Origin: a virus
IMG/VR virus record: IMGVR_UViG_3300046779_001442
Location: 46,901-110,900 of that record
Reading direction: 5' to 3' (one strand)
Length of the DNA: 64,000 nucleotides
The notes beneath the pieces are model-generated. The model had not been told where the DNA came from, did not search any database, and saw only the letters and a program-made list of their open reading frames with translations. How positions within the stretch are numbered: position 1 is the stretch's first letter; each line of letters begins with the position of its first letter. Position numbers and translations under genes: made by a program. Shown here piece by piece: positions 39,530 through 60,034 of this stretch.

Positions 39530-40302
39530 TGTCTGAACCGCTAAAGATTACTTTTATACCTGCTCACGCAGAGCCGTATAGGCTAAAAGAGATGAGCCCA
39601 CCAGAACCAGCTGTAAGGCATATTCCTGAGTGGTACAGGTCTTTGGCAAGACATGACAAGTCTAATAGTGATATAACTCTTAGGCCAGAGAATCATATTG
39701 GCACTGATGGTGCACAGGTATCTACAAAAATGTGCATGCCTTATTTTGATGCAATAACTGCAGGGTATCAGTACTGTTTAGAGGATGATCTATATGTTGA
39801 TATGGATGAGAATGGTCATCCTATTATGCATTGGAAGGGTAATGTTATGTTGGTTGATACACGACCAATCTTTGACGTTCCGCTACCAGACAACTGCCAC
39901 CCAATACATTTTGGCTGGAGAATGAATTGGTTCTATGAGACTCCTCCAGGATACTCTGTTCTAATTACACACCCAATGAATAGGCACGATCTTCCATTCT
40001 ATACTCTTTCTGGAATAGTTGATGCTGACATTTGGGGACTACCCGTATTTACCGCATTCTTTTTAAAGCGTAACTTCCGTGGTGTAATTCCAAAGGGCAC
40101 ACCAATTTTTCAGATGATACCATTCAAGCGTGACAACTGGGAGTTAGATGTTGATAGCTCACAGGAAACGATTGATGAACACTGGTTCCGTGGAGAAAAT
40201 AGAAGATCTATGCTATATGGATACTATAAGAAGACAGCTTGGCGTAAAAAGATATTTGGTATTTTTGGCAAAAAAGAAAAAGAAGTTTCCCATGATGAAT
40301 AG
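39529..40302 (+). CDS. DUF6065-like / dUTPase-like-fold hypothetical protein, paralog 2
   Basis: PEPA...PEWYR, KMCMPYFDAITAGY, GIVDAD, IPKGTPIFQMIPFKR. Confidence 0.55.
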   Translation: MSEPLKITFIPAHAEPYRLKEMSPPEPAVRHIPEWYRSLARHDKSNSDITLRPENHIGTDGAQVSTKMCMPYFDAITAGYQYCLEDDLYVDMDENGHPIMHWKGNVMLVDTRPIFDVPLPDNCHPIHFGWRMNWFYETPPGYSVLITHPMNRHDLPFYTLSGIVDADIWGLPVFTAFFLKRNFRGVIPKGTPIFQMIPFKRDNWELDVDSSQETIDEHWFRGENRRSMLYGYYKKTAWRKKIFGIFGKKEKEVSHDE

Positions 40303-41161
40303 CACAAACCTTACAATAGTTGTAGTGTCTTATAAAGATAAGAATCTTTTTGATTTTGTAAATAATCTAGATAAGAACACTATTTCTGATCATTCAATTG
40401 AGGTATTTGAGCAGCACCCAGTAGACCACTATAAAGATTTCTGGGAGATACCTAAATGCTCTTATGAACATAAAATATGGGATGATATCGCTGGACTAAC
40501 CGTCAAAAAAATAAGTAAGATTGAACCAAGGTTAGATTCGTCAACACATATATGCATTATAACTCCAGACTCTGTTCTCTCTTATGGATGGGACAAAGAG
40601 TTGCTTGAGTTCATGAATAGCAATGACAATGTAGTAATTTCTGGTGGTGGGTTAATATCTGTAACACATAAGGATTTGTTCTCGCTTGAGGCAAAGTATG
40701 TCCCATCAAAGCATTTTTCAAAAACAAATTTTATAAATAAAAATTTCATATTTGCAAAATCAGAAGCATTTAATAATATTGTTATGCCTAATTTCTTAAA
40801 ATACTACGGAGAAGACGAATATTGGACTCTTGCCTTTATGTCTAATGGGTATGAAATATTCTCATGCCCAGATAATATATATGTAGATAAGATGTATAGG
40901 TCTATAGAAAATACATATCATACATTTTCATCTGAGCATAACTATAATGTAGTTGTAGATATTTTAAATAAAATTGACAACGATAGGTATGGAATCACTG
41001 ATGAAGCAATTGATAGATTTGCTAATTTTCACAAGATTGACACTGCAAAAATACTGAAGCTGCCATATCAAACAAATGATGTTTTATATGATCCATATGA
41101 CTTAAAAATGCATGATGTGGATGCAAGAAGATTTATAGCAGGGACTAAGGCGGTATACTAA
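40292..41161 (+). CDS. Divergent GT-A glycosyltransferase (GT60-like, altered DxH)
   Basis: IVVVSYKD, GWD, FIFAK, YGEDE...SNGYEI align with neighbouring GT60-like genes; IDSH replaced by ITPD. Confidence 0.55.
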   Translation: MMNSTNLTIVVVSYKDKNLFDFVNNLDKNTISDHSIEVFEQHPVDHYKDFWEIPKCSYEHKIWDDIAGLTVKKISKIEPRLDSSTHICIITPDSVLSYGWDKELLEFMNSNDNVVISGGGLISVTHKDLFSLEAKYVPSKHFSKTNFINKNFIFAKSEAFNNIVMPNFLKYYGEDEYWTLAFMSNGYEIFSCPDNIYVDKMYRSIENTYHTFSSEHNYNVVVDILNKIDNDRYGITDEAIDRFANFHKIDTAKILKLPYQTNDVLYDPYDLKMHDVDARRFIAGTKAVY

Positions 41162-41162
41162 G

Positions 41163-41774
41163 ATGGAGGAAAAAATGCATAGAATAGAAATTGTAAGTAA
41201 CTTCTTAGAAGAAGATGATGCTAAGCTTTATGTAAAAGAAGCAGATCATCCATCAGCCATAGAGCCATTTCCAGAATACTATAAGGAAAGATTTGGTGGC
41301 ACAGCTCTTCAGTATAATGAGAACACCAGATATCTTAATAAAAAGTACGGAAGAAAGGCTGCTGAGTATGTAAAAAAGCTTTATGGCTTTAAGCGTCCAG
41401 TATATGTATACAAGGTGTTTATGAATCATACTACAGAGATAGGATATACTGGTGGACTGCATACAGACTCTGTAAATCCAGAACCTTGGATCGAATGGAG
41501 TGTTGTTGCCTACCCAGAGAATAATTTTGAGGGAGGAAAGCTACACTTTCCAAATCAAGAATTTGTGTATGATCCAGTGCCACTAGAAGCAGTTTTTTTC
41601 CCAAGTGCAGGACACGAATATATTCATGGAATATCAGAGATGACTGCTGGAGAAAGATTTTCAATAGTTATTTGTCTGACAAGTCTTCCATGGCATGCAG
41701 ATCAGGACATGCTGGAGCCAGAAGATGATATGGAATGGATTCCAAACATTTATAATTTGAAAGAAGATAACTAA
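41163..41774 (+). CDS. 2OG-Fe(II) oxygenase (prolyl 4-hydroxylase-like)
   Basis: LHTD, FEGGKLHFP, AVFFP, YIHG, ERFS. Confidence 0.88.
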   Translation: MEEKMHRIEIVSNFLEEDDAKLYVKEADHPSAIEPFPEYYKERFGGTALQYNENTRYLNKKYGRKAAEYVKKLYGFKRPVYVYKVFMNHTTEIGYTGGLHTDSVNPEPWIEWSVVAYPENNFEGGKLHFPNQEFVYDPVPLEAVFFPSAGHEYIHGISEMTAGERFSIVICLTSLPWHADQDMLEPEDDMEWIPNIYNLKEDN

Positions 41775-42736
41775 TGTTTATAAATAAAGATAAAACAATT
41801 TTTATGACTGTTCCAGCATACAATGATCCATCTCTTATTAGGACTATAGAGAGTGCCATAGACAATGCACTTTTTCCAGAAAGAGTATTCTTTTGTATTG
41901 GTATGCAATATGACGAAGATAAAATGCCAGATATTTCTAAATACTTGGATAACCCTAATTTCAATTTTATTTTTTATGATGTGAAAGAAAGGCCAGGGGT
42001 TTATTGGATTAGACGTGAAATGGCTGAGCAACACCAGGGCCAAGATTACTTCTTGATGATTGACTCTCACATGTTATTTTCTAAATACTGGGATGCAAAA
42101 CTAATAAATGACTATGAAGATCTTAGAAGATTGCATGGTGACAGAACCATCATATCTAGACCAACCATGGATGGTTTGGGAGAAGCTATTACAAGCGGTT
42201 TGATTAATGATAAATCGCACTGGATCGTTGACTGGAATAATCAAAAAGATAGTATTGAGCGTACGATATTACCTTGGACATCACAGTTTCCTTGGGAAGG
42301 TGAGAGATATCAGTATACCCTATACTCATGCAGTCACTTTTTTTTCACAAACAAAGACTATCTTTCTGATGTAGGGTTTCATAAAACAATAAGGTCATAT
42401 TCCGAGGAATATACTATTGCAATAAGTAGCTTCTTATCTGGATGGGATTACTATATGCTTCCAGAGTATGTACATATAGGACATGACGATAGGGCAACAG
42501 CTCAGGCAATTTATGGTAAAGATAAGCATACCTTGGGTAGCGATGGTAAGAGATATCAGGCCTTGTTTGAGACACCAGAAGAAAAACTGGAGATATCAAA
42601 GTTTGTTTTGCTAGACAATTCTAAAATGTTTAAGGTTAAAAACCAGAGAAGAAACATAGAAGAATTCTATCAAATAGCTGGAAAAGAACTTTCCGATGCT
42701 AGAGATACCTTTATAGCAATGCTAAATTTAAATTAA
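41774..42736 (+). CDS. GT60/Gnt1-like glycosyltransferase
   Basis: IFMTVPAYNDP, PGVYWIR, YFLMIDSHMLF..YWD, SEE...SGWDY. Confidence 0.8.
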   Translation: MFINKDKTIFMTVPAYNDPSLIRTIESAIDNALFPERVFFCIGMQYDEDKMPDISKYLDNPNFNFIFYDVKERPGVYWIRREMAEQHQGQDYFLMIDSHMLFSKYWDAKLINDYEDLRRLHGDRTIISRPTMDGLGEAITSGLINDKSHWIVDWNNQKDSIERTILPWTSQFPWEGERYQYTLYSCSHFFFTNKDYLSDVGFHKTIRSYSEEYTIAISSFLSGWDYYMLPEYVHIGHDDRATAQAIYGKDKHTLGSDGKRYQALFETPEEKLEISKFVLLDNSKMFKVKNQRRNIEEFYQIAGKELSDARDTFIAMLNLN

Positions 42737-43642
42737 TTTGCATGTTACTGGATCATACCCTATAAAGCTAATATAGTCTTCAATAGATCTTTTAGTTAGT
42801 GCACCGTTCTTTGGGTGGTATATCTTTTCTACAAATATTGACTTGAAATATTCGTGGTCTTGCTCTTCTTTTTTCCCCCAAAGACTATTCCATCTTGGAT
42901 CCTTATACCTAGAGTGCTTAACATATGAGTCTTTATCTGCATGCTCATAGTCAAAACCGCAGAGATATGATCCTGAAGGGCCTACTACATTGTATCCACC
43001 AGTATATGCCCTAAGCATCATCATAGGCTGTTCATATTTAAATAATATGTTATCTGCTTGTGGAACATCACGTAAAAATTGTGTCTCACCAAATAAATGT
43101 CCAGCACATATAAATTTTTCTAGAGTTTGTATTGGTTGCTTGACTACCTGCCTGCCCATGATTGGTCCGCCATATATTTTGAACCACTCTTCATCGGCTT
43201 CTGCTGTCCACAAACACCCCTTAAAGTCTTCATCCCAGTCTGTAAATATTGTTGGTATGTATCCACCAATTACACTTTTACCAAATTGGCGATTAGCATC
43301 TTCTAGCTCATTAATAAAGTGTAAGTCCCAGTTTGGTGCAAATTTTGTGTGGGAGTCAACCTGTAAAAAATATCTCTCATCCCTAACTAACGTCATGGCT
43401 ATATCGCCACGTATTTTGGTAAGTGATAGAGGAGCTGTCTCTGCGTCAATCCAAATAAACCTAACCTCTGGTCCAAGGTTATTTATTTCTTTAATCATCC
43501 ATCTATCTTCTTCATACCCCTGAAAGACACAGCCAAAAACCAGCCCATCCTTATTTGATGCAGAGTTATATGCAGATAGGATTGTATTAATTACAAACGG
43601 ATCTCTCCATGCAGATATCTGAACTATTATCTTATTTTTCAC
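42728..43642 (-). CDS. GT60/Gnt1-like glycosyltransferase
   Basis: IIVQISAWRDP, YFLQVDSHTKFAPNWD, AGHLF, EQ...RAYTGGY. Confidence 0.8.
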   Translation of the reverse strand: MKNKIIVQISAWRDPFVINTILSAYNSASNKDGLVFGCVFQGYEEDRWMIKEINNLGPEVRFIWIDAETAPLSLTKIRGDIAMTLVRDERYFLQVDSHTKFAPNWDLHFINELEDANRQFGKSVIGGYIPTIFTDWDEDFKGCLWTAEADEEWFKIYGGPIMGRQVVKQPIQTLEKFICAGHLFGETQFLRDVPQADNILFKYEQPMMMLRAYTGGYNVVGPSGSYLCGFDYEHADKDSYVKHSRYKDPRWNSLWGKKEEQDHEYFKSIFVEKIYHPKNGALTKRSIEDYISFIGYDPVTCKLI

Positions 43643-43694
43643 AGCTTTCCTAACATGATATAATTAGTATACCAGAAGGCCTAGGGGAGGTATT

Positions 43695-44273
43695 ATGGCA
43701 AATAAAAACACGGCAGCCCTACTAGTTGAGGTTGCAAAGAAAGAACTTGGGACTATTGAAGGACCAAAAGATAATGAGACCAAATATGGTAAATTTACAA
43801 AGGTAAACTTTCAGCCTTGGTGCGGAAGTTTCGTTATGTGGTGTGCAGATCAAGCAGGGGTAAAGGTGCCAAACACTGTCTACACACCAGCAGGTGCAGC
43901 ATCATTTGAAAAAATGGGTGCATGGATTGATGCAAAGAGTGGAGAATCACCACAGCCAGGAGACATCCTGTTTTTTGATTTTCCAGAAGATGGTGTCAAT
44001 AGAATATCTCATGTAGGTATTTGCATTAAGGCTGGAAGAGATGGGCTATGCACAACTGTAGAAGGCAACACATCTGGGACTGCAAAGGGAGACCAGAGAA
44101 ATGGCGGAATGGTTGCAGAAAAGATTCGTGGATATGCAAAGAATAAAAAGGGTATTCAGGTGTCTATTGTTGGATGGGGCAGACCAAAGTTTGCATCTAA
44201 CACTTCTGCATCAGAGAAACCTTTTGACACAGACTCGGTAGTGGAAATTTATTGCGATTATCTAGAAGCATAA
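43695..44273 (+). CDS. CHAP-domain peptidoglycan hydrolase
   Basis: PWCGSFV, PGDILFF, HVGI, VEGNT. Confidence 0.88.
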   Translation: MANKNTAALLVEVAKKELGTIEGPKDNETKYGKFTKVNFQPWCGSFVMWCADQAGVKVPNTVYTPAGAASFEKMGAWIDAKSGESPQPGDILFFDFPEDGVNRISHVGICIKAGRDGLCTTVEGNTSGTAKGDQRNGGMVAEKIRGYAKNKKGIQVSIVGWGRPKFASNTSASEKPFDTDSVVEIYCDYLEA

Positions 44274-44308
44274 TGTGTTAAAATATATTTATACAGAAGG
44301 AGGGCCAT

Positions 44309-45079
44309 ATGGCCAAGTATCAATATCCGATTGACGGAGGAAAAAACAAAGGCTGGAAAATCAGCAGTAAGATGGGCTGGAGAATCCACCCAGTTCAGAA
44401 AACCAAAAAGCACCACAATGGAACTGACATCTTTGGGCTTGGAAAGAAGCCATGGTACATCGAAGCATTTGCAGATGGAAAGGTTCTAAAGGCACAGAAG
44501 TCGACTGCTGCAGGTGGTGGATTTGGATACTATGTAGTGCTTTTACACAAGATTGATGGAGTATTTTACACATCGCTATATGCTCACATGGAAGAAGGAT
44601 CTATTCAGGTAAAGGTTGGTCAGACTGTTAAGGCTGGTACAGTTCTTGGTAAGATGGGAACTACTGGTATGTCAACTGGTGTTCACCTTCACTGGGAGAT
44701 CTGGAAGGGCAAAGAACATGGCTGGTCTGCAGATGGCAAGGGCTTCGTTGAGCCAGTTGGTTTCGTAGAAGCACTTATGGCAGCAGAGAAGGCAAAGGCA
44801 TCAGCTGATGAGGTAACTCCTGCTGACGCTCCAGCACAGCCACTGCCAGCTCACTCGGCCATGCCAGAGGAAAAGCCAAAGCCAGCACCAAAGACTGCAT
44901 CTAAACCAGCTGCTAAGCCAGTTGCAAAGACAGCAGCAAAGATATATACTGTTAAGTCAGGAGATACTCTTGGTGCTATTGCAACTAAGAACAAAACTAC
45001 TGTTGCTAATCTTGTTAAGATTAATGGACTTAAAGATGCTAACAAGATTTCTGTTGGTCAGAAAATTAAGCTTGGCTAG
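44309..45079 (+). CDS. M23 peptidase + LysM endolysin
   Basis: HNGTD, YAHM, STGVHLHWE; Pro/Ala/Lys linker; YTVKSGDTL LysM. Confidence 0.92.
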   Translation: MAKYQYPIDGGKNKGWKISSKMGWRIHPVQKTKKHHNGTDIFGLGKKPWYIEAFADGKVLKAQKSTAAGGGFGYYVVLLHKIDGVFYTSLYAHMEEGSIQVKVGQTVKAGTVLGKMGTTGMSTGVHLHWEIWKGKEHGWSADGKGFVEPVGFVEALMAAEKAKASADEVTPADAPAQPLPAHSAMPEEKPKPAPKTASKPAAKPVAKTAAKIYTVKSGDTLGAIATKNKTTVANLVKINGLKDANKISVGQKIKLG

Positions 45080-45108
45080 TTGACAAGATCTACACTGGGT
45101 GGTATACT
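45080..45108 (+). promoter_or_regulatory. Promoter
   Basis: TTGACA-17nt-TATACT with TG extension. Confidence 0.75.
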
Positions 45109-45150
45109 TTATATAGTATGCCACCCTTTGTGGCCTTTATAGGAGGAAAT

Positions 45151-45351
45151 ATGGAATCCAATAAAAGAAGTATGATTAAGACATTGAGCTGGGAGACATT
45201 CCATCTCGTTGGAGTGGCTGGTGTGATTTATCTTTTCACTGGCGAATGGGAGTACGCAAGCCTTGGAGCACTAATTTACATTGCTTGGGAATCTCTTGGA
45301 TATTATATCCATGAGCGTCTTTGGGCTAAGTTTGGTAAGAAGGTAAAGTAG
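45151..45351 (+). CDS. DUF2061-like small membrane protein
   Basis: RSMIKTLSW...YYIHERLW; AGGAGG RBS. Confidence 0.8.
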   Translation: MESNKRSMIKTLSWETFHLVGVAGVIYLFTGEWEYASLGALIYIAWESLGYYIHERLWAKFGKKVK

Positions 45352-45530
45352 TGCCAGTATACGAATACGCATGCACATCCTGTGACCATTCATTTAAAGA
45401 AACTAGAAGCATCCACGATCCATCTCCAGAGCATATGTGTGAAAAATGTGGATATAGAATGAAGCAAGTGCTAGGCACTCCTGCAGTTCATTTTAAGGGT
45501 AGTGGATTTTATCGTACGGACAATAAATAA
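45351..45530 (+). CDS. FmdB-family zinc-ribbon protein (59 aa, not in ORF track)
   Basis: MPVYEYACTSC...CEKCG...FKGSGFYRTD. Confidence 0.88.
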   Translation: MPVYEYACTSCDHSFKETRSIHDPSPEHMCEKCGYRMKQVLGTPAVHFKGSGFYRTDNK

Positions 45531-45766
45531 TGACAGAAGAGACAGTAAAAGAGTGGGTTCTAACTGCCAATGATCGCTGTGATAGTTGTGGTGCTCAGGC
45601 ATATGTACAGGTTACTGGAGTAACTGGATCTTTGCTCTTCTGCAGCCATCACTATAATAAGATTATGGATAATGCAGTAGGATATGACAAGATGATGAAG
45701 TTTGCGTATGAGTTTATTGATGAGCGTGAACGTCTACAAGAGAATCGAACAAAAGGTGAAGACTAA
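45530..45766 (+). CDS. Small zinc-binding hypothetical protein
   Basis: DRCDSCGAQAY...LLFCSHH. Confidence 0.75.
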   Translation: MTEETVKEWVLTANDRCDSCGAQAYVQVTGVTGSLLFCSHHYNKIMDNAVGYDKMMKFAYEFIDERERLQENRTKGED

Positions 45767-46760
45767 AAGAATTTTACTAACAGGTGGTGCTGGTTTTGTT
45801 GGAAGCCATGTGCTAAAGCGTATTCTTGATACCACTGACTGGGAAGTTGTTTTGCTAAAAACATTTCAGCATCATGGATGGCAGGACAGAATAGTTTGGG
45901 CAACTGATAGCAATGATGTAAAACTAAACAGAATTAAGCTAATCACATGCGACCTATCTGCACCAATTTCACCAATCACATCGAAAGAGATTGGGCATAT
46001 TGATTATGTAATTAATCTTGCAAGTGAAAGCCATGTTGATAGAAGTATTCAGTCACCCACCCCCTTTATTGTCAACAATGTTCAAGTTATTTGCCATATG
46101 CTTGACTGGGCTCGTGAGGCAAAGCCAGAAAAATTTGTGCATGTTTCTACTGACGAAGTGTTTGGTCCGTACCAAGATAGAAACTTTGTTGAGTGGGACA
46201 CACACCTACCTAGTAACCCATATAGTGCATCTAAAGCAGCACAAGAGGATATTATTTTTGCATATTGGAGAACCTATAGCATTCCAGTAGCAATTGTGAA
46301 TATCATGAATATTGTAGGCGAATGTCAAAACGTAGAGAAATTTACACCAATGGCAATTAAAAAAATTGTCAACGGTGAGACTCTAGACATCCACACTTAT
46401 GATGGCGACAAGATCGGAAGAAGATACTGGCTATATGCTGGAAATAAGGCATCAGCACTACTTCATACACTTGATCAGCCTTTTAGGCTGCCATCAGAGA
46501 CAAATCGTCCACTTAGATTTAATATTGCTGGAGATGCAGAATACTCTAATCTAGAGTGGGCACAGAAGATTGCAGATATTATTGGTAAGCCATTAAACTA
46601 CAGGCTTGTTGATTCTTCTATATCAAGGCCTGGATATGATTCAAGTTATGGGCTAGATAATAGCAAGATTCTCGATTCTGGATGGAAACCGCCATATAGT
46701 TTAGACGAGGCATTAGAAAAAATTGTTAATTGGTATTTGGAGCATCCAGAATGGTTATAA
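45756..46760 (+). CDS. NDP-glucose 4,6-dehydratase (RmlB-like)
   Basis: TGGAGFVG, ASESHVDRSI, STDEVFG, YSASK. Confidence 0.92.
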   Translation: MKTKRILLTGGAGFVGSHVLKRILDTTDWEVVLLKTFQHHGWQDRIVWATDSNDVKLNRIKLITCDLSAPISPITSKEIGHIDYVINLASESHVDRSIQSPTPFIVNNVQVICHMLDWAREAKPEKFVHVSTDEVFGPYQDRNFVEWDTHLPSNPYSASKAAQEDIIFAYWRTYSIPVAIVNIMNIVGECQNVEKFTPMAIKKIVNGETLDIHTYDGDKIGRRYWLYAGNKASALLHTLDQPFRLPSETNRPLRFNIAGDAEYSNLEWAQKIADIIGKPLNYRLVDSSISRPGYDSSYGLDNSKILDSGWKPPYSLDEALEKIVNWYLEHPEWL

Positions 46761-47947
46761 GAAATAAATGTCGTGCATGCGACAGCCCTAAACTATTTTT
46801 AGCTATTGACCTTGGCATACAGCCATTAGCTGGTGGATTTGTAAAAGAAAAAGAGCCATCATATCTGTATCCAAACAAAATGATGGTTTGCAGTGATTGT
46901 GGACTGGGTCAGTTATCAGTTGATATCAAGCCAAGCGAATTGTACAAGAACTATAACTGGAGAACATCAACAAGTAAGTCCTATCTAAATTATATTTATG
47001 AGTTTGCTGATAAACATATTATTCCTAGGATTAACCCAGGTGAATGGGTCTTGGAAATTGCAAGCAACGATGGATACTTACTCAAATATTTGCAATCAAA
47101 TGGAATAGATGTCCTTGGCGTAGATCCTGCAGAAAATATCTCTAGGTACGCTATTTGTGATGGTGTTCCAGTAATCACAGACTTTTTTGGAACCAAGGTA
47201 GCAGAAGATGTAGTCAGGCTAAAGGGTAAACCTAAGTGGATTATTGCTAACAATGTTATGGCACACACACCAGACATTCAAGATTTTATGGCAGGCATAT
47301 CAATGCTATGTGATAGAGATACGATTGTTACTGTGGAAAATCCGACCATAATGAACATCATTGACCATGACCACTTTGATGTGATCTTCCATGAACATTA
47401 CTCATATTTGTCTGCACACGCTGTTGCAAAGCTTGCAAATAAGATGGGCCTATCTCTATTCAACGTTCAGTCAGTGCCTCCGCAAGGTGGTTCCAATAGG
47501 TATTGGATCAAGCAGGGTGGGGAGCCAACTGAGGGAGTTAGGGTAGCAATCAGGGAAGAGCTGCAGTATGGTCTTTTAGATAGAAACAAATGGTCTGAGA
47601 CACAAGATAGAATTCGCCAATCAGCAAATAGTTTTAATGGCAGGGTTGAATCTATCTGGCAATCTGGTGGAGTTGTATGTGGTGTTGGTGCATCTGCAAA
47701 GTCAACAGTGGTTCTTAATTTTGCTGGCGTACAGTCAAAAAGAATTTCAGCAATTGCTGATGATGTAAAAGAGAAGCAGGGACACTATGTCCCTGGACCC
47801 AACATTCCAATCATAAGTATGGATGAAATGCTAAAAATGAATCCAACTGATATAATAGTTTTTGCTTGGAACATTCGAGAAGAGCTAGAAAATAAGCTAA
47901 GAAATTTAGGATACACTGGAAAAGTCTGGGTATGGAACGGAGAATAA
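46751..47947 (+). CDS. NDP-hexose C-methyltransferase family protein
   Basis: CRAC...CSDC zinc motif, LEIASNDG, NNVMAH, FHEHYSY, GASAK, FAWN. Confidence 0.88.
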   Translation: MVIRNKCRACDSPKLFLAIDLGIQPLAGGFVKEKEPSYLYPNKMMVCSDCGLGQLSVDIKPSELYKNYNWRTSTSKSYLNYIYEFADKHIIPRINPGEWVLEIASNDGYLLKYLQSNGIDVLGVDPAENISRYAICDGVPVITDFFGTKVAEDVVRLKGKPKWIIANNVMAHTPDIQDFMAGISMLCDRDTIVTVENPTIMNIIDHDHFDVIFHEHYSYLSAHAVAKLANKMGLSLFNVQSVPPQGGSNRYWIKQGGEPTEGVRVAIREELQYGLLDRNKWSETQDRIRQSANSFNGRVESIWQSGGVVCGVGASAKSTVVLNFAGVQSKRISAIADDVKEKQGHYVPGPNIPIISMDEMLKMNPTDIIVFAWNIREELENKLRNLGYTGKVWVWNGE

Positions 47948-47948
47948 T

Positions 47949-51710: not shown

Positions 51711-51720
51711 GAGGAAAACC

Positions 51721-52011
51721 ATGAATGAACAACTAAAAGCAATGATTGCATCATACGGACGCTCTGTCCTTGGTGCTGCATCAACACTATACCTAGCTGG
51801 AGTGACTGATCCACTAGATTTAGTCTGGTCACTTGTAGGTGCTCTCGCACCAGTAGCAATTCGCTACATCAATCCAAATGACCCAGCATTTGGTCGTGTA
51901 CCAAAGGTTGAAGAGGTAGAGGTTGCTCTTGCAGCAGCAAAACCTGCTAAGGCACCTGTAAAGAAGGCACCTGCTAAGAAGGCTACTACAAAGAAGCCTG
52001 CTTCAAAGTAA
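51721..52011 (+). CDS. Putative holin-like membrane protein with Lys/Ala tail
   Basis: AGGAGG RBS; two hydrophobic segments, NPNDPAFG; KKAPAKK tail. Confidence 0.5.
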   Translation: MNEQLKAMIASYGRSVLGAASTLYLAGVTDPLDLVWSLVGALAPVAIRYINPNDPAFGRVPKVEEVEVALAAAKPAKAPVKKAPAKKATTKKPASK

Positions 52012-52026
52012 TATAAATAAAGATTG

Positions 52027-52058
52027 GGCAGGCTGCAATATGTGGCCTGCCTTTTCTT
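52027..52058 (+). terminator. Rho-independent terminator
   Basis: ggcaggctgca-ata-tgtggcctgcc followed by T-run. Confidence 0.8.
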
Positions 52059-52074
52059 ATGCTATAATAATCTT

Positions 52075-52356
52075 ATGACTCAACATGCACTACTAACTCT
52101 TTCAAGCTCTATAGCTACTAGACTAACCCCCAATGGAATACACTCTGGTCTCGACATCACAATTCAAAATGTAGATGACTCTGCATATGTTTATGTTGGC
52201 GGAGAGGGAGTCACCGCACTAAGCTACGGATACAGAATTGCTCCTGGTCACGCAATTTCTTGGGAGCTCCCAGGAAACGACTCTTTGTATGCTATTACAG
52301 ACACGAATCTATCAAAATTAGCAGTATTAAAAACAAGTCTTGAGAGCGGTAGCTGA
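52075..52356 (+). CDS. Hypothetical beta-rich protein (leaderless)
   Basis: TGCTATAAT + 6 nt + ATG. Confidence 0.65.
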   Translation: MTQHALLTLSSSIATRLTPNGIHSGLDITIQNVDDSAYVYVGGEGVTALSYGYRIAPGHAISWELPGNDSLYAITDTNLSKLAVLKTSLESGS

Positions 52357-52802
52357 TGGCTAGATTTACACATCCAAGCATTTCTATGTCAGCAACTACG
52401 GCAGACGGGACATGGACTATTGAGGGTGGAACTTTAAATGGATCTCAGCCGACATTTGATGGGTCACCAATGTTTTCTGGGGAATGGCTTTTAATCGGAA
52501 AACTCTGTCACTTCTCTATTGATGTAGATATGGACAACATTACAAGCTTTGGTTCTGGCCAATATTATGTCAAGCTTCCATTCGCATCTAAACAAAACTA
52601 TTTAATGTCCGATGGATGCTTACATGACATCTCAACTGGTGATGAGTATGCAGTGCTTGGGCATGTTCAGGCTGGCTCAGATACCCTGTCACTTTTGACA
52701 ACTACATCAAATGGAAAGCAGAACCCATTTAATAGTGGTGTTCCAGTAAATCTAAATCAACAAGATAATTTTCATATCAGCGGAACATACATCATCGAAT
52801 AA
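52356..52802 (+). CDS. Hypothetical protein, fibre-tip-like domain
   Basis: GEWLLIGKLC...YVKLPF...ISGTY pattern; TGATG coupling. Confidence 0.5.
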   Translation: MARFTHPSISMSATTADGTWTIEGGTLNGSQPTFDGSPMFSGEWLLIGKLCHFSIDVDMDNITSFGSGQYYVKLPFASKQNYLMSDGCLHDISTGDEYAVLGHVQAGSDTLSLLTTTSNGKQNPFNSGVPVNLNQQDNFHISGTYIIE

Positions 52803-52810
52803 GGAGAAAA

Positions 52811-53365: not shown

Positions 53366-53367
53366 GT

Positions 53368-54018: not shown

Positions 54019-54038
54019 CAAAGTGATATAATATTATT

Positions 54039-54127
54039 GTCTCTCACACAGGCTATCGCTCTTAGGATGGATTAGTTACCTATTTTATGACCGTGCGTCT
54101 AGCAGGTAGGATGTCTGTGTGAGAGAT
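54039..54127 (+). ncRNA. Candidate 89-nt small RNA with its own promoter
   Basis: TGATATAAT + 6 nt, then 15-bp terminal stem gtctctcacacaggc / gtctgtgtgagagat. Confidence 0.6.
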
Positions 54128-54870
54128 TATTTAATGCCCAAATCTTTATGTCTTCTATCAAACGCATCTAATGCATTATGATAATCATCCATTAGCTTAT
54201 TTGTTAGGTGAAACTTCTCAACCATTTCTCTGATTATATTATACTCTTCTGGCTTTTCTACTGGAAAAGCATTAGCAGCACCACTCTTATAATTTATATC
54301 ATTTTTAGCATGCTCTATATGACCTGCAAGGTGTTGGTCAATCTGTTCTTTTGTCTTCATGTTGCACTCTCCAGTGCCTCCAGAAAGCCTATAGAGGTGT
54401 GGAAGAACATTCTCAAGGTCTTCTGTTACCTGCTCGAATGTAAAGGGAACTATGCGGTCTAGAGCTAGCATTGAGCCATATGTATATCCTTCCCACATCC
54501 TAGATTCCTGATACATAGACTCTTTAATAAACTCTTCCTTTTTATCACGGAAGAATGCCATATTTCCTTCAACAATTTCTGGTCTTCCTGCAATGGTCGC
54601 TCCACCAAAACCATAAGACGTTTTTAAAATTTGCGAGGTAACTGCATCAATTGGATTTCTCATTACGGTTGTAACAGTAACTCCTGGAAGGTCTGCCCTA
54701 AATAATAGTGGTTCATGACACAATATGATCCAGTTGTCAGTCTGGCTCCATTCGCCAGCAATTCTTGGATCTTTTCCATCCCTATCATTGTGACCATACA
54801 TATCTCTAATTAGATCAAAAAAGAAAAACCCTGCCGTTCTTGGCATTGTATTTAAAATAATTTTATACAT
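54127..54870 (-). CDS. Sulfotransferase-like protein
   Basis: PRTAG (5'-PSB-like) and RNPIDAVTS (3'-PB-like) motifs; coupled behind GT60-like gene. Confidence 0.6.
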   Translation of the reverse strand: MYKIILNTMPRTAGFFFFDLIRDMYGHNDRDGKDPRIAGEWSQTDNWIILCHEPLLFRADLPGVTVTTVMRNPIDAVTSQILKTSYGFGGATIAGRPEIVEGNMAFFRDKKEEFIKESMYQESRMWEGYTYGSMLALDRIVPFTFEQVTEDLENVLPHLYRLSGGTGECNMKTKEQIDQHLAGHIEHAKNDINYKSGAANAFPVEKPEEYNIIREMVEKFHLTNKLMDDYHNALDAFDRRHKDLGIK

Positions 54871-55993
54871 TGTGAAAACTACCAACCTTTACTGTAAATG
54901 AGTCATCAACGATTTTATACGTATTAATTTTACCATACCCACCCTGATAGGCTACCTCTAATAGCGTGTCATGGAATAGTTTGTCGCTAACAAATTGTGC
55001 ATTCTCTAAATCTATTTTTGGGGCTCTTTTTATCTCTAAAGTTATTGGGTCATATCCAATAAAATTAATATATTCACGTATAGTCCTCACACTAAAAGCC
55101 CCATTCTCAAGATGGTATCCAGCATTGCTGCTAAGGTTAAATATCTTTTGGTACTCTTCAAATGACTCAAGGTTAGCAATCTTGTACCTTTTGTTACGCT
55201 CCTCATTATCCCATCTATAGTGCCTGATAAAGCTATCACCTTTGGATCCCTCTTCCCTCCAATAGTTAAAGTTATTTGTATATAAATATGATGGAGAGAT
55301 AACGTTATATCCAGCTGTCCATGCACGTAACATCATTGTCTGTTGCTCAAAACATTGTGCTACCTTTTCTGGGAATGGAACTTCTCTGACGTAATAAGAG
55401 TATGCAAAGACCATGTTTCCATTATAAAATTTTTCCTGAATCATAAGATTGTTTGGCTTAGTAACCACTCTTCCATTTAGAGATATTTCGTGTTCAAAAT
55501 TCACATTTTCACGAATCCAGCTCCACTCTTCGTTAGAAGCATAAGATGTAAGTGGGTCAGCAATAAATGGATCTGACCAAGATGTAAAGTAAGATGTTTG
55601 TGAATTTATAATGCTTTTACCAAACAATCTATTTGCTATAAGCAACTCTGTCTTGAGCATTATGTCCCAATTTTTTCTAAACTTAGTATGGGAGTCAATC
55701 TGTAGGTAATAAGATTCATCAGTCATTAGTTTGTCTGACACAGCTTTTTTAATTTCACATAAATATATTGATGCATTATCTCCATTAACCATCTCTATTT
55801 TAATATTTACATGAGATAGATTAGTCTTTAGCTTTTCAATCATCCAAGCATCTTCTTCGTAACCCTGAAAATATACACCAAACACTAAAGACTCTTTGTC
55901 AAATGCCTGTTCGTATGCAGACTTAATTGTCTCATATACAAAAGGATCTCTCCAACAAGGTATAGCAATAAATATTTTATTATTCATGAACAC
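54863..55993 (-). CDS. GT60/Gnt1-like glycosyltransferase
   Basis: IFIAIPCWRDP, YYLQIDSHTKFRKNWD, EQ...RAWTAGY. Confidence 0.82.
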   Translation of the reverse strand: MFMNNKIFIAIPCWRDPFVYETIKSAYEQAFDKESLVFGVYFQGYEEDAWMIEKLKTNLSHVNIKIEMVNGDNASIYLCEIKKAVSDKLMTDESYYLQIDSHTKFRKNWDIMLKTELLIANRLFGKSIINSQTSYFTSWSDPFIADPLTSYASNEEWSWIRENVNFEHEISLNGRVVTKPNNLMIQEKFYNGNMVFAYSYYVREVPFPEKVAQCFEQQTMMLRAWTAGYNVISPSYLYTNNFNYWREEGSKGDSFIRHYRWDNEERNKRYKIANLESFEEYQKIFNLSSNAGYHLENGAFSVRTIREYINFIGYDPITLEIKRAPKIDLENAQFVSDKLFHDTLLEVAYQGGYGKINTYKIVDDSFTVKVGSFHNV

Positions 55994-56222
55994 CCCTTTC
56001 GTATTCTCTCTGTTTGTGACAGTTTGAGCAAACTACATCGCATTTTTTTACTTCCTTCCATGCTGCATCTTTACCGTATTTTCTGAGTACACGATAAACC
56101 ACATCAACCTTCTTAACCCCTGGCCTATGGTCAAACTCTAATATGTAATGGGGGTAGTGGACTTTGCAATCCTTGCACCCCATCTTTTCTTTATAAGCCT
56201 GAAACTGAGAGTATTGATTCAT
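55980..56222 (-). CDS. HNH-like small nuclease domain protein
   Basis: CKDC...LEFDH...KCDVVCSNCH. Confidence 0.75.
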   Translation of the reverse strand: MNQYSQFQAYKEKMGCKDCKVHYPHYILEFDHRPGVKKVDVVYRVLRKYGKDAAWKEVKKCDVVCSNCHKQREYERGVHE

Positions 56223-56258
56223 TACTTATATTATAGCAAACAGCGGTATAATAATAAT

Positions 56259-56483
56259 ATGAATTTTGAAGCTTTCGACTACAATTTAGATGAAAGGCAT
56301 GCTTTACTTTTGCAGAGAATTGACGATATAACATCAGAGATATATTCTATTGGTGCATATGAAGAGAGAAAAGCCATTTTTGATCACATACGTGAACTAA
56401 TTCAGCAAAAAGACATCGCTGGAGATATGATTGCCGTAGAGGTCCTCTGCTGGACCCTAGATCAAATTGCGTCTGAAGCGTAA
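56259..56483 (+). CDS. Hypothetical protein (leaderless)
   Basis: TATAAT + 6 nt + ATG. Confidence 0.6.
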   Translation: MNFEAFDYNLDERHALLLQRIDDITSEIYSIGAYEERKAIFDHIRELIQQKDIAGDMIAVEVLCWTLDQIASEA

Positions 56484-56597
56484 GTCTGATATAATTGTAA
56501 AAATAAATCATTTTGTTATCAAAATGTAATCATTGAATTCAAAAAACACTCTAATACGATTGTATAATTGTATTCTTATAACCTAAAGGAGATATTT

Positions 56598-56819
56598 ATG
56601 ACTACGGTTTATTCAAAACCAGCCTGTGTCCAATGTGACATGACAAAGAAAATGCTAGATAAGAATGGGATTGAATATACTGTGATAGATATCACACAAG
56701 ATGCACAAGCCTATGACAAAATTGTTAGTATGGGATTTATGTCAGTACCAGTTGTCATTTCTGGAGACCAGGCTTGGGCAGGCTTTCAGCCAGACAAGAT
56801 AACTGCACTAGCAGCTTGA
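56598..56819 (+). CDS. nrdH: Glutaredoxin-like NrdH
   Basis: VYSKPACVQC, VPVV, WAGFQPDKI; AGGAG RBS. Confidence 0.93.
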   Translation: MTTVYSKPACVQCDMTKKMLDKNGIEYTVIDITQDAQAYDKIVSMGFMSVPVVISGDQAWAGFQPDKITALAA

Positions 56820-56870
56820 CATAAACCCACACAATTGCTATAATCTATACTATAGAGAAATGGGTATTTA

Positions 56871-57032
56871 GTGAATTGGCATTTAATTTGGGACATGCTT
56901 TCTGATATAAACCATATTGTTGTAGACTTTTTTTGGAATACTATATATGAGTTGACAGTAGCAGTTATTTCCTATAAAATTATAGTTAAGAAATTAGAAA
57001 AGAGATTCAAAAATAATGATGGACAAAATTAA
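56871..57032 (+). CDS. Small membrane protein, FFWN paralog 1 (53 aa, not in ORF track)
   Basis: Downstream of TTGACA-17-TATAAT (56816-56844); HIVVDFFWNTIY. Confidence 0.6.
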   Translation: MNWHLIWDMLSDINHIVVDFFWNTIYELTVAVISYKIIVKKLEKRFKNNDGQN

Positions 57033-57726
57033 GGTATTAGATGATGGCTATGTCAGATTGGTTGATGTTCTTGGAAACGACCTTAGCGTTGTTAACGCTG
57101 CTCGTGTTAGTTATGATAAGGAAAGTGACGAATTCTCTCAACGAGATCAAAGACTCATTGAATTCCTTGTCCGAGAAGGTCACACATCTCCGTTCAGACA
57201 CGCAGCAATCACCTTGGAAGTTTACGCACCGCTCTTTGTCGCAAGACAATGGTGGAAGTATGCAGTCGCATCAACACATGTAGATGATCAAAATGGATGG
57301 AACGAATCTTCTAGACGATATATCACAGAAGATGAGGAGTTCTACGTACCACTTTCTGATGAATGGCGTAGCAAGCCAGAGAATAGTAAGCAGGGCAGCG
57401 GTGAACCAATTGATGAAGAAAAGGGTGCTTGGTACTTTGAAAAGCTAATTCAGACCATTGCATCTGGAACTAGCCTATACCATCAGGCCATGGAAGACAA
57501 CATTGCACCAGAGCTTGCTAGGCTATTTTTGCCAGCATATGGAATGTACGTACGTTGGCGTTGGACAGCCTCCCTACAGGCAATTATGACCTTCCTAGAC
57601 CAGCGTCTAGAGCATGATGCTCAGTGGGAAATTCAGCAATACGCAAAAGCGGTACGGGACTTGACAAATGATGTTTTTCCACGTACAATGGAGCTATACA
57701 AAACATTTAAGGAGAATAATGATTAA
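57016..57726 (+). CDS. thyX: FAD-dependent thymidylate synthase
   Basis: VNAARVSY, HTSPF, PLFVARQ, NESSRRY, PELAR, AQWEI. Confidence 0.92.
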   Translation: MMDKIKVLDDGYVRLVDVLGNDLSVVNAARVSYDKESDEFSQRDQRLIEFLVREGHTSPFRHAAITLEVYAPLFVARQWWKYAVASTHVDDQNGWNESSRRYITEDEEFYVPLSDEWRSKPENSKQGSGEPIDEEKGAWYFEKLIQTIASGTSLYHQAMEDNIAPELARLFLPAYGMYVRWRWTASLQAIMTFLDQRLEHDAQWEIQQYAKAVRDLTNDVFPRTMELYKTFKENND

Positions 57727-58009
57727 GCCACTAGAAGATAAAGTAGTAGTAAAGCCAATTGAAGAATCTGAGAAGACAAGTGCAGGCGGTTTGATTATTG
57801 CCAATGTAAACAATGAGAAGCCAACTGAAGCTATTGTTATTGCAGTTGGTCCAGGATTCACTGCTGCAAATGGTGATAAGGTTACTATTGATCTAAAGCC
57901 AGGAGACAAGGTAATCTATTCAAAGTATTCTGGCACAGAGATTGAGCACAACTATGAGAAGCTAATTATCCTTCCATACCGTGACATCTTTGCAGTAGTT
58001 GAGGGATAA
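57719..58009 (+). CDS. groES: Co-chaperonin GroES
   Basis: IKPLEDKVVV, SAGGLII, VIAVGPG, GDKVIYSKYSGTEI. Confidence 0.93.
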   Translation: MIKPLEDKVVVKPIEESEKTSAGGLIIANVNNEKPTEAIVIAVGPGFTAANGDKVTIDLKPGDKVIYSKYSGTEIEHNYEKLIILPYRDIFAVVEG

Positions 58010-58182
58010 TGCACACTGAAGATCTATTAGAAGTTGTTTTTGGTCTAGAGCACATTATTGCAGAATTTTTCTGGAATGCTGTATTTGCAATTGCAGTATT
58101 GGCCTTATCAAAATCAAAGGCACTAAGTCGAATTCATAAGTACATTGACGACAGGCACGAGGTAAAGCATGACAAGTACTGA
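58009..58182 (+). CDS. Small membrane protein, FFWN paralog 2 (57 aa, not in ORF track)
   Basis: TAATG coupling to groES; HIIAEFFWNAVF. Confidence 0.7.
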   Translation: MHTEDLLEVVFGLEHIIAEFFWNAVFAIAVLALSKSKALSRIHKYIDDRHEVKHDKY

Positions 58183-58381
58183 GCTAAAGTGTAATTGGCC
58201 ACATGGTTATTTACACGTAACACAGCAACTCCTAGATGACCAGAAGAAGCATCAGAGACTTAATACATATAATGAAATGATTAAAGATCTTGAGTCAGAA
58301 CTATATGCAAACAAGAATGAAGACCCTTACTATGCATACTATGTAAAGGCAGTAATCGAACGAATACAATCTAAGATATAA
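58169..58381 (+). CDS. Hypothetical protein
   Basis: GAGG RBS; overlaps previous ORF. Confidence 0.6.
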   Translation: MTSTELKCNWPHGYLHVTQQLLDDQKKHQRLNTYNEMIKDLESELYANKNEDPYYAYYVKAVIERIQSKI

Positions 58382-58387
58382 AGTCTT

Positions 58388-58464
58388 GGGGCAGTAGTTC
58401 AGTTGGTTAGAGCACCACTCTTATAAGGTGGTTGTCGTGGGTTCAAGTCCCACCTGCCCTACCA
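58388..58464 (+). tRNA. tRNA-Ile(TAT)
   Basis: Cloverleaf; loop ctTATaa; A73 and encoded CCA. Confidence 0.9.
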
Positions 58465-58465
58465 T

Positions 58466-58537
58466 CTCTCCATAGCTCAGCGGAAGAGCAGCAGGTTTCT
58501 ACCCTGCGTGTCGGGAGTTCGAATCTCTCTGGGGAGG
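58466..58537 (+). tRNA. tRNA-Arg(TCT)
   Basis: Cloverleaf; loop ttTCTac. Confidence 0.9.
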
Positions 58538-58557
58538 CAAATGATATAATGGAAAAT

Positions 58558-59115
58558 ATGAAAGAAATACAAGTAATAGAGAATCTCATCTCTAGCGATG
58601 ATGCACAAACAATCATAGATTTTATTGAAGATAAGCTAGGCTTATTTGTATACAACAAAGAGCGTAAAAGATATATGCTTAGATTTGGGTATGACGAAGA
58701 GTTACCAGAGCAAGCAATTCATTCTATGTTTATTGTAAGACCAATCAAAGATGTTTTATTAAAAATATTTCAAAGAGCTAATAATATGGTTGGCGATGAC
58801 CTATTTTTAACATCTTGGTTTATTTCAAAACAAGTTCCTGGAGCAAAGCTGTTGCCACATAAAGATGGGACTGCAGGAATGAATGATCATTTAGAATACA
58901 CAGCAATGCTATATTTAAATAATTTAGACAACAATGGCATAATAACATTCCCAGATTTAGACATCAACATAACTCCTAAACTTGGAGACCTTGTTATATT
59001 TAGATCTTTAGATCATGAACACATGGTTTCTGAAATAACTCAAGATAGATATTCTATCCCAATGTGGTTCACAAAAGATGAAAGCTTAAAGTTTAATGGA
59101 CAAAATATTTATTAA
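58558..59115 (+). CDS. 2OG-Fe(II) oxygenase (prolyl 4-hydroxylase-like)
   Basis: PHKD, MLYLN, PKLGDLVIF, HMV, RYSIPMW; TGATATAAT 7 nt upstream. Confidence 0.88.
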   Translation: MKEIQVIENLISSDDAQTIIDFIEDKLGLFVYNKERKRYMLRFGYDEELPEQAIHSMFIVRPIKDVLLKIFQRANNMVGDDLFLTSWFISKQVPGAKLLPHKDGTAGMNDHLEYTAMLYLNNLDNNGIITFPDLDINITPKLGDLVIFRSLDHEHMVSEITQDRYSIPMWFTKDESLKFNGQNIY

Positions 59116-60034
59116 TATTGCAGCATATAGAGACCCACTTCTAGTAAGGACACTTCATCAGGCGTTAGATAATGCTGATAATCCAGAGCTTTTGGTTTTT
59201 GGAATTGGAATGCAATATGAAAAAGCTATATATCCAACACTTTCATTTGTTCCAAAAGAACAGTTAAAAATAATTGATTATGATATTCAAAATCGTCCAG
59301 GTGTAACAAAAATTAGATATGAAATAACTAGCTTTCTTTATAACCAAGAAAAATATTTTTTAATGATTGACTCTCATAGTAAGTTTGAAAAAGGCTGGGA
59401 CACTTATTTGAAAAAATCTCTTGATAGTCTTGGGACTCGTACAATAATTACTGGTCTTGGACATATTGAAGATGGCAAAATATTGTTGGCAAAGTCAGTG
59501 ATTGAGCAGGGTAGGAGAGAGCTAGCGTTTGTTAGACAAAACTATTCACAAGACTTTAAAGAGGATGATGCTGGATCTTTCATTAAATGCCCATACATTG
59601 TTTGTGGTTTTATGTTTACATATGGATCGTTTATCTCTGAAGTTGGATTTGATGAGTATAGTCAGTTTGGATCAGAAGAACCATATCTATCTTGGAGAGC
59701 ATTTATGTCTGGATGGGACATATATCATACATCATATTGGCCAATAGTTCATGCCCCAGACGAGTACTATGATGCAGCATGGGGTGGCCATGAAAACAGA
59801 ACGTTCTTGAGGAAAGAGTCTGAGTCTTTATTTAAACTACACAGATTGATGCAACAGTCTTTAGCTTATGTTTATAACGACTATTCTATTTATGCTATTA
59901 AAAATTCACAAAAAAATCCGATAGATTGGTTTTTGGCAAACGGTCACACCAAGAGCGATTATGTAAAAATAAAAGATCATTTTGACAAAATGATACGAAA
60001 TCAAGCAACAGAGCATGATATAATAATACTATGA
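59096..60034 (+). CDS. GT60/Gnt1-like glycosyltransferase
   Basis: IFINIAAYRDP, YFLMIDSHSKFEKGWD, CGFMF, GSEE...RAFMSGWDIY. Confidence 0.85.
   Translation: MDKIFINIAAYRDPLLVRTLHQALDNADNPELLVFGIGMQYEKAIYPTLSFVPKEQLKIIDYDIQNRPGVTKIRYEITSFLYNQEKYFLMIDSHSKFEKGWDTYLKKSLDSLGTRTIITGLGHIEDGKILLAKSVIEQGRRELAFVRQNYSQDFKEDDAGSFIKCPYIVCGFMFTYGSFISEVGFDEYSQFGSEEPYLSWRAFMSGWDIYHTSYWPIVHAPDEYYDAAWGGHENRTFLRKESESLFKLHRLMQQSLAYVYNDYSIYAIKNSQKNPIDWFLANGHTKSDYVKIKDHFDKMIRNQATEHDIIIL

Follow-up and report, generated by a model that had tools for sequence, protein, structure and literature searches.

Can a bacterial virus hydroxylate the side chains of a protein and then glycosylate the hydroxyl groups it has made? 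The question is raised by the right arm of an uncultured phage genome, the 110.9-kb IMG/VR virus record IMGVR_UViG_3300046779_001442, in which genes for prolyl 4-hydroxylase (P4H)-like 2-oxoglutarate (2OG)-Fe(II) oxygenases lie against genes for glycosyltransferases (GTs) of CAZy family GT60. We analysed bases 46901-110900 of this record, a stretch of 64,000 nt referred to as the window. Coordinates are those of the window unless marked 'genome', genes are called by the first coordinate in Table 1, and labels of the form L### denote related viral or bacterial loci, with G001 and G002 for complete relative genomes. An initial annotation, made from the letters of the window, had proposed that repeated oxygenase-GT60 gene pairs form a hydroxylate-then-glycosylate system. 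Our answer, held with moderate confidence, is that hydroxylation of a residue of a phage protein by the paired oxygenase is followed by transfer of the first sugar to that hydroxyl by the GT60 enzyme.

Two oxygenase genes overlap GT60 genes

Two oxygenase genes of the window run directly into a GT60 gene. The stop codon of 41163 overlaps the start codon of 41774 in the pentanucleotide TAATG (41772-41776), and 58558 shares 20 nt with 59096 (59096-59115); both overlaps are as the initial annotation had described them. A third junction, ATGA at 60031-60034, joins 59096 to the small downstream gene 60031. Read from these junctions, the two oxygenase genes are translationally coupled to their GT60 genes. 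The 58558 gene begins 20 nt past a tRNA-Arg gene (58466-58538), and because a longer open reading frame (ORF) from 58432 runs through this tRNA, we took 58558 to be the real start. A promoter and terminator scan returned fewer sites than in shuffled sequence and was uninformative on operon structure. Across the whole genome, two of the four oxygenases adjoin a GT (p=0.015).

Four enzymes match family GT60 and a fifth copy is degenerate

The initial annotation had listed five GT-A ORFs and had assigned four of them to GT60 from their motifs. All five were recovered, and the four score above the Pfam gathering cut-off of PF11397 (GlcNAc, CAZy GT60), which is 21 bits (Table 1); a six-frame PF11397 search of the whole genome agreed with the ORF-level result. 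The quoted motifs also held in an alignment of the four window GTs with 20 homologs (24 sequences). In this alignment D13, D92, H94, W101, D102 and E194 are invariant, D13 lying in (Y/W)(R/N)DP, D92, H94, W101 and D102 in (I/V)DSHxxFxxxWD, and E194 in E(E/Q). As sequence matches, the GT60 family assignments are far beyond chance. The window GTs are 23-25% identical to Gnt1-like proteins and form a clade of their own.

The fifth ORF, 40292, which had been called a degenerate copy, lies below the PF11397 cut-off and has no Pfam or PHROG match. Compared with the GT alignment profile by hhalign, it matched with a probability of 90% (E 1.4e-6) over 183 columns. It has TPD in place of DSH and retains YKD and GWD, and its start agrees with that of 287-aa orthologs in L017 and L084. 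Because the profile match is combined with the DSH-to-TPD change, 40292 is read as a decayed GT paralog.

Searches of PDB sequences with single proteins or with the GT profile gave nothing significant; fold searches were hence used. The AlphaFold2 (AF2) model of 59096, with a predicted local distance difference test (pLDDT) score of 88, has a Rossmann-type alternation of strands and helices. Its nearest PDB folds are those of the GT27 polypeptide GalNAc-transferases, which are GT-A enzymes (template modelling (TM) score ~0.55, 12-17% identity), and its BFVD matches are proteins named 'Glycosyltransferase, GlcNAc' from uncultured phages, Megaviridae and Pandoravirus. A tblastn search with 59096 found no homolog in cultured actinophage records; it matched only two jumbo phages of Xanthomonas, at 27% identity. 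In the alignments, the N-termini of 58558 and 59096 showed neither a signal peptide nor a membrane anchor, and both enzymes are therefore predicted to act in the cytoplasm.

The oxygenases and the prolyl hydroxylase fold

The genome encodes four P4H-like oxygenases. Two of these, 63267 and genome 28139, are paralogs additional to the pair known from the initial annotation. The P4H-like assignment made there stood fully for 58558, which exceeds the PF13640 gathering cut-off of 27 bits and is modelled with a prolyl hydroxylase fold, and less directly for 41163, which has no Pfam match and whose family membership rests on PHROG matches together with a conserved HxD...H...R alignment. That alignment comprises 22 sequences, including all four paralogs, and H101, D103, H155 and R164 are invariant in it, so that the HxD...H...R set is complete. 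It was too divergent for a scan of other loci, for which the 58558 subfamily was used instead.

The AF2 model of 58558 has a pLDDT of 93.8. Among the PDB matches listed by Foldseek, nearly all are prolyl hydroxylases (E 1e-9 to 1e-11, TM 0.6-0.7): PBCV-1 vCPH is the top match, and PHD2, P. putida PPHD, B. anthracis P4H, DdPhyA, P3H1 and C-P4H-II are included. The same type of fold also serves the hydroxylation of lysine and other substrates. Orthologs of 41163 occur in L017 (66% identity) and L084 (44%), and those of 63267 in L095, L101 and L102. The fourth oxygenase closely follows three tandem paralogs that are 43-47% identical to one another (genome 25978-28666, equivalent to L008:5978-8666), and a Ser/Thr/Pro-rich protein (genome 25135-25962) adjoins this cluster.

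Pairing in related viruses

Eleven related viral contigs (oxygenase identity 56-83%) retain 58558 and 59096 as an overlapping pair, and so does the distant L016, at 30% and 35% identity. In the GT tree, one clade of 27 unites the four window GTs and their orthologs with L016 and L013, and an oxygenase lies within 5 kb of 26 of its members. The oxygenase tree groups the paired oxygenases, with a weak support of 82. On this phylogenetic evidence, the oxygenase-GT pair looks ancestral in the 58558 clade, with the GT lost in two subclades. The number of GT60 genes differs between the complete relatives, with four in G001 and one in G002. Orthologs of 54863 were found in L012, L093, L095, L101, L102 and L108; the 42728 GT is not present at the matching position in L017 and L084.

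Fused and adjacent genes in bacteria and other viruses

GT60-like stretches were confirmed more than 570 times in viral contigs and more than 560 times in bacterial genomes, and 78 loci of each were analysed for oxygenases. In seven of the 78 bacterial loci, PF11397 and PF13640 are parts of a single encoded protein, as Pfam confirmed for the five that were checked (Table 1). The fusions come from Burkholderiales, Alphaproteobacteria, Arenicella and Parasphingorhabdus metagenome-assembled genomes. In a further seven bacterial loci an oxygenase lies no more than 150 bp away, as in the divergent pairs of five SAR86 genomes, and four more have one within 5 kb. The base rate of PF13640 is about one per genome, and the sole copy in a 1.1-Mb SAR86 genome adjoins its GT60 gene. 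Since oxygenases occur only about once per genome, these bacterial fusions and close pairs (14/78) are the best support for a coupling of the two activities.

Among the viral loci, L079:1859-6815 encodes a 416-aa oxygenase, then a 914-aa fusion of a PF10250 protein O-fucosyltransferase with a GT60 domain, then a second GT60. In the GT tree the association with oxygenases appears in several separate clades, and eukaryote-type Gnt1-like sequences branch beside the bacterial fused proteins. As judged by gene arrangement, linkage of GT60 to PF13640 across lineages is beyond chance but patchy. Fusion or adjacency was seen in 14/78 bacterial loci, and pairs in L016 and L079; the pair is broken in L099-L107, L017 and L084. 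A word-based search of a protein collection found no longer fused relatives of 59096, which makes this a weak negative; the fusions came from genome loci. In the literature searched, with most subscription journals outside its scope, we found no description of fused GT60-oxygenase proteins and no paper on a phage or bacterial P4H-GT60 system, in agreement with the initial annotation, which knew of no characterised phage version. One of the fusion loci also encodes, at L192:1569-4913 on the minus strand, a protein of 1114 aa that carries an AhpC/TSA domain and matches GT60 repeatedly.

Candidate acceptor proteins

If the oxygenase and GT60 act in sequence, the candidate substrates would be proteins that the phage itself encodes and that are produced in the same cytoplasm. 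Two such proteins, the linker of the tail protein 6948 and the zinc-ribbon protein 60031, are candidates by inference. Orthologs of 6948 (L209-L226) have a conserved C-terminal 160 aa and an N-terminal linker that is hypervariable, with (TKPKT)n, (KPDPK)n, (KP)n, (TTTKK)n or PAPK-like repeats, or none. G001, with its four GT60 genes, has PAPK-like and TTTKK repeats and G002, with one, has none, a comparison that is anecdotal with three complete genomes only. Ten contigs with a 6948 ortholog and no GT60 are fragments (29-73% complete) in which the accessory arm is not included. The 60031 protein has no family match. Its 16 orthologs share the conserved motifs YG(Y/F)PTP and ETFPPTEWP, and its gene lies directly after the oxygenase gene, or after the GT gene if present, in every relative found (e.g. 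L095, L099, L101 and L106).

Acceptors of another kind are found beside GT60 genes of other phages. Proteins with (Thr-Pro)n repeats are encoded in 13 of the 72 viral GT60 loci that are free of oxygenases, and in L046, L061, L062, L063, L064, L070 and L088 the repeat protein is directly upstream of the GT. This arrangement suggests mucin-type direct glycosylation of phage proteins by those other GT60 enzymes.

The accessory island

The right arm is an accessory island of cytoplasmic protein- and glycan-tailoring enzymes, whose coordinates are collected in Table 1. At the head of a tightly packed run of genes (38798-42736), which ends with an oxygenase and a GT, stand the tandem paralogs 38798 and 39529 (31.5% mutual identity), which keep this order in L017 and L084 and whose match to PF19541 is weak and below the cut-off. 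These DUF6065-like proteins were considered as oxygenases and rejected, as hhalign found no relation. Genes 45702 and 46730 are conserved in L017 and L084; from the families they match, the two would probably supply an unusual donor sugar, a 6-deoxy, C-methylated nucleotide sugar. The sulfotransferase-like gene 54127 overlaps the 3' end of GT 54863 by 23 nt on the same strand, and its adjacency to the GT is kept in L095 and L101. It had no Pfam, PHROG or PDB sequence match. Its first match in the protein atlas scored 0.96 with 185 shared features, 93% of the members of the matched cluster have PF00685, and a PRTAG loop lies near its N-terminus. A homolog of the GT8 gene is located in L084 between an oxygenase and a 41774-like GT. 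No match was obtained in an NCBIfam search of the unassigned ORFs.

Genes for cell-wall hydrolases are interspersed among the GT genes, namely CHAP (43695), M23 plus LysM with a Pro-rich linker (44309) and an SLT/lysozyme-like protein (60300); they span 43695-45079 and 60300-60917. Outside the window, a left-arm protein of 234 aa (genome 15764-16468) contains a short collagen-like stretch of nine G-X-Y triplets, and the C-terminal part of that protein has a paralog in the window at 52356-52802 (30% identity).

The record is rated complete by CheckV and has a G+C content of ~39%. Its products include a DnaE-type polymerase with 55% identity to Streptomyces phage polymerases, a DnaB-like helicase, ribonucleotide reductase (RNR), ThyX and a 1430-aa minor tail protein. 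The polymerase matches are consistent with an actinophage, and the host is probably actinobacterial. ARAGORN detected 24 tRNA genes, of which 22 form an array at 35634-38098 and two form the separate tRNA-Ile(UAU)/tRNA-Arg(UCU) pair at 58388-58538. In a blastn comparison of the island with cultured phages, only tRNAs matched.

Table 1. Features of the window, of the remaining genome and of related loci
Feature	Position	Strand	Evidence and remarks
GT60 glycosyltransferase	41774-42736	+	PF11397 51.7 bits; closest paralog of 59096 (30% identity over full length; tree clade)
GT60 glycosyltransferase	42728-43642	-	PF11397 77.3 bits; convergent with 41774; 39% identical to 54863
GT60 glycosyltransferase, 376 aa	54863-55993	-	PF11397 66.8 bits
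GT60 glycosyltransferase, 312 aa, top-scoring copy	59096-60034	+	PF11397 97.2 bits
Degenerate GT60-like GT-A paralog	40292-41161	+	hhalign to GT profile; DxH metal motif lost
2OG-Fe(II) oxygenase, 203 aa, divergent	41163-41774	+	PHROG 274/61/2297 matches; no Pfam match
P4H/PHD-fold 2OG-Fe(II) oxygenase, 185 aa	58558-59115	+	PF13640 37.9 bits
Third P4H-like oxygenase in window, 195 aa	63267-63854	-	PF13640 43.6 bits; phrog_61/2297
Fourth oxygenase, outside window	genome 28139-28666		PF13640 27.2 bits, borderline
Fused proteins, 605-962 aa, N-terminal PF11397 and C-terminal PF13640	L173:1132-2997, L192:4917-6854, L205:3079-4896 (-), L162:98-2986, L168:97-2877		
Large (Thr-Pro)n or TPS-repeat proteins upstream of GT60	L046:2984-4870, L061:313-4905, L062:2582-4939, L063:2160-4763, L088:3376-4965		No oxygenase nearby
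Tail protein after 1430-aa minor tail protein	6948-7955	+	Disordered Lys/Thr/Pro linker with (TKPKT)n
Zinc-ribbon protein, 62 aa, CxxC...CxxC	60031-60219	+	Alignment of 16 orthologs; ATGA-coupled to 59096
Two tandem paralogs, phrog_7084 / weak DUF6065	38798-39529, 39529-40302	+	phrog_7084 E 2.5e-45, 2e-32
dTDP-glucose 4,6-dehydratase-like SDR	45702-46760	+	PF16363/PF01370; TIGR01181 221 bits, below equivalog cut-off
Sugar C-methyltransferase	46730-47947	+	PF08421/PF08484/PF13489
Sulfotransferase-like protein (lead only)	54127-54885	-	Protein-atlas feature search
tRNA-Ile(UAU), tRNA-Arg(UCU)	58388-58538	+	ARAGORN; directly upstream of 58558; tRNA matches in other phages
GT8 glycosyltransferase	61982-62794	-	PF01501 119 bits; 473 nt from oxygenase 63267

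Proposed mechanism and alternative explanations

We propose that the oxygenase of each pair would hydroxylate a protein side chain, most likely proline, and that the GT60 enzyme would transfer the first sugar to the new hydroxyl, like PhyA and Gnt1 acting on Skp1. HexNAc is suggested as the donor sugar by analogy alone. The unpaired GT60s, the GT8 and the sulfotransferase-like enzyme may extend or decorate the glycan, or may glycosylate Thr/Ser directly. A fuller version, in which Pro/Lys hydroxylation in the tail-protein repeats or in 60031 is followed by GT60 O-glycans, a C-methyl-6-deoxy sugar and sulfation, is put forward tentatively. The enzyme families, the folds and the linkage found elsewhere speak for the hydroxylate-then-glycosylate proposal of the initial annotation, but the pairing on which it drew is not fixed and two of the four GTs are unpaired.

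Several findings weigh against the proposed coupling. Within the accessory arm, the adjacency of oxygenases and GTs is not significant (p=0.11), and it is GTs 42728 and 54863, both intact, that have no adjacent oxygenase. Among relatives, 7 of the 19 orthologs of 58558 (in L099, L100 and L103-L107) have no GT60 within 5 kb and are directly followed by a 60031 ortholog; L101 and L102 have GT60s only at 2-4 kb from the 58558 ortholog. Orthologs of 41163 and 41774 are split by two to three genes in L017 and L084, the insert consisting in L017 of a NodU/NolO-type carbamoyltransferase (L017:3554-4972), a 294-aa unknown protein and an extra oxygenase, and in L084 of another oxygenase and a GT8. More widely, 69/78 viral and 60/78 bacterial GT60 loci have no oxygenase within 5 kb, large acidobacterial and viral GT clades show no oxygenase association at all, and the phage oxygenases form a different clade from the bacterial GT60-linked ones in the oxygenase tree. 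No Pro/Thr-repeat protein was found within 5 kb of oxygenase-bearing viral loci (0/45), and the structural likeness of the modelled enzymes to known folds is modest (TM ~0.55 for 59096; TM 0.6-0.7 at 16-20% identity for 58558). Because phage GT60 genes adjoin (Thr-Pro)n proteins without an oxygenase, direct glycosylation of Thr is moreover a sufficient function for the GT60 family. The two families may then be independent, the GT60s glycosylating Ser/Thr of phage proteins directly, in a mucin-type reaction like that of T. cruzi GT60 or of GT27, and the oxygenases acting elsewhere, on fibre proteins of the phage, for instance, or on translation factors or ribosomal proteins of the host, with their adjacency a product of shuffling in an accessory island. 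This explanation, possible but to our mind doubtful, would accommodate the arm-level statistic, the persistence of oxygenase orthologs without a GT and of GTs without an oxygenase, and the (Thr-Pro)n proteins, often directly upstream of the GT, in oxygenase-free viral loci. It is also favoured by the presence of the EF-Tu prolyl hydroxylase PPHD among the oxygenase fold neighbours, by one ortholog that its source names Tpa1-like, and by the location of the fourth oxygenase in a fibre block with other oxygenases, far from the GTs. It is harder to reconcile with the fusions and adjacent pairs of several unrelated lineages of bacteria, whose genomes hold about one such oxygenase each, with the start/stop overlap at both pairs, and with the retention of the 58558/59096 pair in L016 at 30-35% identity.

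The acceptor may also be something other than a protein. Enzymes of this kind could, during infection, build or remodel a glycan, a glycolipid or a small molecule, such as a host envelope polymer or a nucleotide-sugar metabolite, and the nucleotide-sugar genes, the GT8, the sulfotransferase-like gene and the NodU/NolO-type carbamoyltransferase of relatives make up a set that is typical of polysaccharide and Nod-factor-type tailoring; the CHAP, M23 plus LysM and SLT cell-wall hydrolases between the GT genes point the same way. We consider this unlikely, since the nearest solved GT folds are polypeptide GalNAc-transferases, the nearest oxygenase folds act on peptidyl proline, the enzymes are free of signal peptides and membrane anchors, and other phage GT60 genes neighbour mucin-like proteins. 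To our knowledge, both characterised GT60 activities likewise use polypeptide acceptors. Hypermodification of DNA, with the oxygenase hydroxylating a base and the GT glycosylating it, as in phage systems that combine TET/JBP enzymes with GTs and as in base J, is highly improbable. In its favour, the enzymes work in the cytoplasm, the phage encodes genes of nucleotide metabolism (ThyX, RNR and a pyrimidine-dimer glycosylase), and weak, non-significant sequence matches to a Naegleria Tet-like dioxygenase were obtained (E 0.37-0.53). The fold matches nevertheless led us to judge DNA modification unlikely, the GT resembling peptide GTs and no TET, JBP or AlkB being among the listed matches of 58558, together with the lack of any TET/JBP (PF12851) or ThyA-type (PF00303) gene in the complete genome, a negative that is weak, as the first control matched nothing.

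Comparison with known systems

Hydroxyproline-linked glycosylation is regarded as eukaryotic, occurring on Skp1 in protists and on extensins and arabinogalactan proteins (AGPs) in plants, and we know of virus-encoded hydroxylate-then-glycosylate chemistry characterised only in giant viruses. If the fuller version of the proposal is true, a bacterial virus would wear an extensin-like or mucin-like coat, and the system that makes it would be the first among prokaryotes and their viruses to O-glycosylate hydroxyamino acids, its cellular counterpart being the fused GT60-P4H enzymes of bacteria. A phage version and the bacterial fusions together would trace this chemistry back to a prokaryotic or phage origin. 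They would also add a new virion or protein modification, possibly affecting adsorption, stability or recognition, and would supply small soluble enzymes for site-specific protein glycosylation.

A viral two-step enzyme has already been characterised in mimivirus, where L230 is a lysyl hydroxylase with hydroxylysyl glucosyltransferase activity that acts on a viral collagen repeat protein (PMC9546862); mimivirus R699 has been compared together with L230 (PMC9546862, PMC5802723). As proposed for the phage, mimivirus and PBCV-1 direct virus-encoded 2OG oxygenases at a virus-encoded repeat protein, and mimivirus adds a sugar to the new hydroxyl. PBCV-1 vCPH (PDB 5c5t) heads, as described above, the structural matches listed for 58558. 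This enzyme acts on Pro/Lys-rich repeats, (PAPK)n for instance, which resemble the linkers of the tail protein 6948 and its orthologs; we know of no glycosyltransferase partner for vCPH. Unlike the phage, these viruses infect eukaryotes. The target of L230 is lysine in collagen and its GT domain is of PLOD type, not GT60, and the phage's only collagen-like stretch is short and lies outside the window.

A nearer comparison by host is the mycobacteriophage system of Freeman et al. 2023 (Cell Host Microbe; cited in PMC12801897), in which phage-encoded cytoplasmic GTs reportedly O-glycosylate capsid and tail proteins of the virion. Relatives of the window phage likewise infect Actinobacteria, as the 55% identity of DnaE to that of Streptomyces phages indicates. 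The mycobacteriophage enzymes are said to belong to other GT families and to glycosylate Ser/Thr directly, with no hydroxylase step. The T. cruzi UDP-GlcNAc:polypeptide alpha-GlcNAc-transferases (GT60) and the animal GT27 enzymes share with the phage GTs a GT-A fold with DxH, and their polypeptide acceptors are rich in Thr/Pro. They differ in being Golgi enzymes with membrane anchors, in the lectin domains that GT27 enzymes also have, and in acting with no prior hydroxylation.

The closest likeness is to the modification of Skp1 in Dictyostelium and Toxoplasma, where hydroxylation of Pro154 by PHYa yields Skp1-OH, on which GNT1 acts (PMC11570480). The enzyme families are the same (PF11397, and PF13640 with the PHD/P4H fold, DdPhyA 6t8m being among the matches), both are soluble enzymes of the cytoplasm, the order of oxygenase and then GT is mirrored in the order and coupling of the phage genes, and further glycosyltransferases are available for extension of the glycan. 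The phage enzymes differ in being minimal (185 and 312 aa), in having four GT and four oxygenase paralogs versus one each, and in a pairing that varies among relatives. Skp1 and its SCF complex are eukaryotic and do not occur in bacteria or phages. Because the target must differ, the phage system would work like the Skp1 pathway without being a member of it, and by this analogy the paired oxygenase and GT60 enzymes are a plausible phage analogue of the protist PhyA/Gnt1 pathway.

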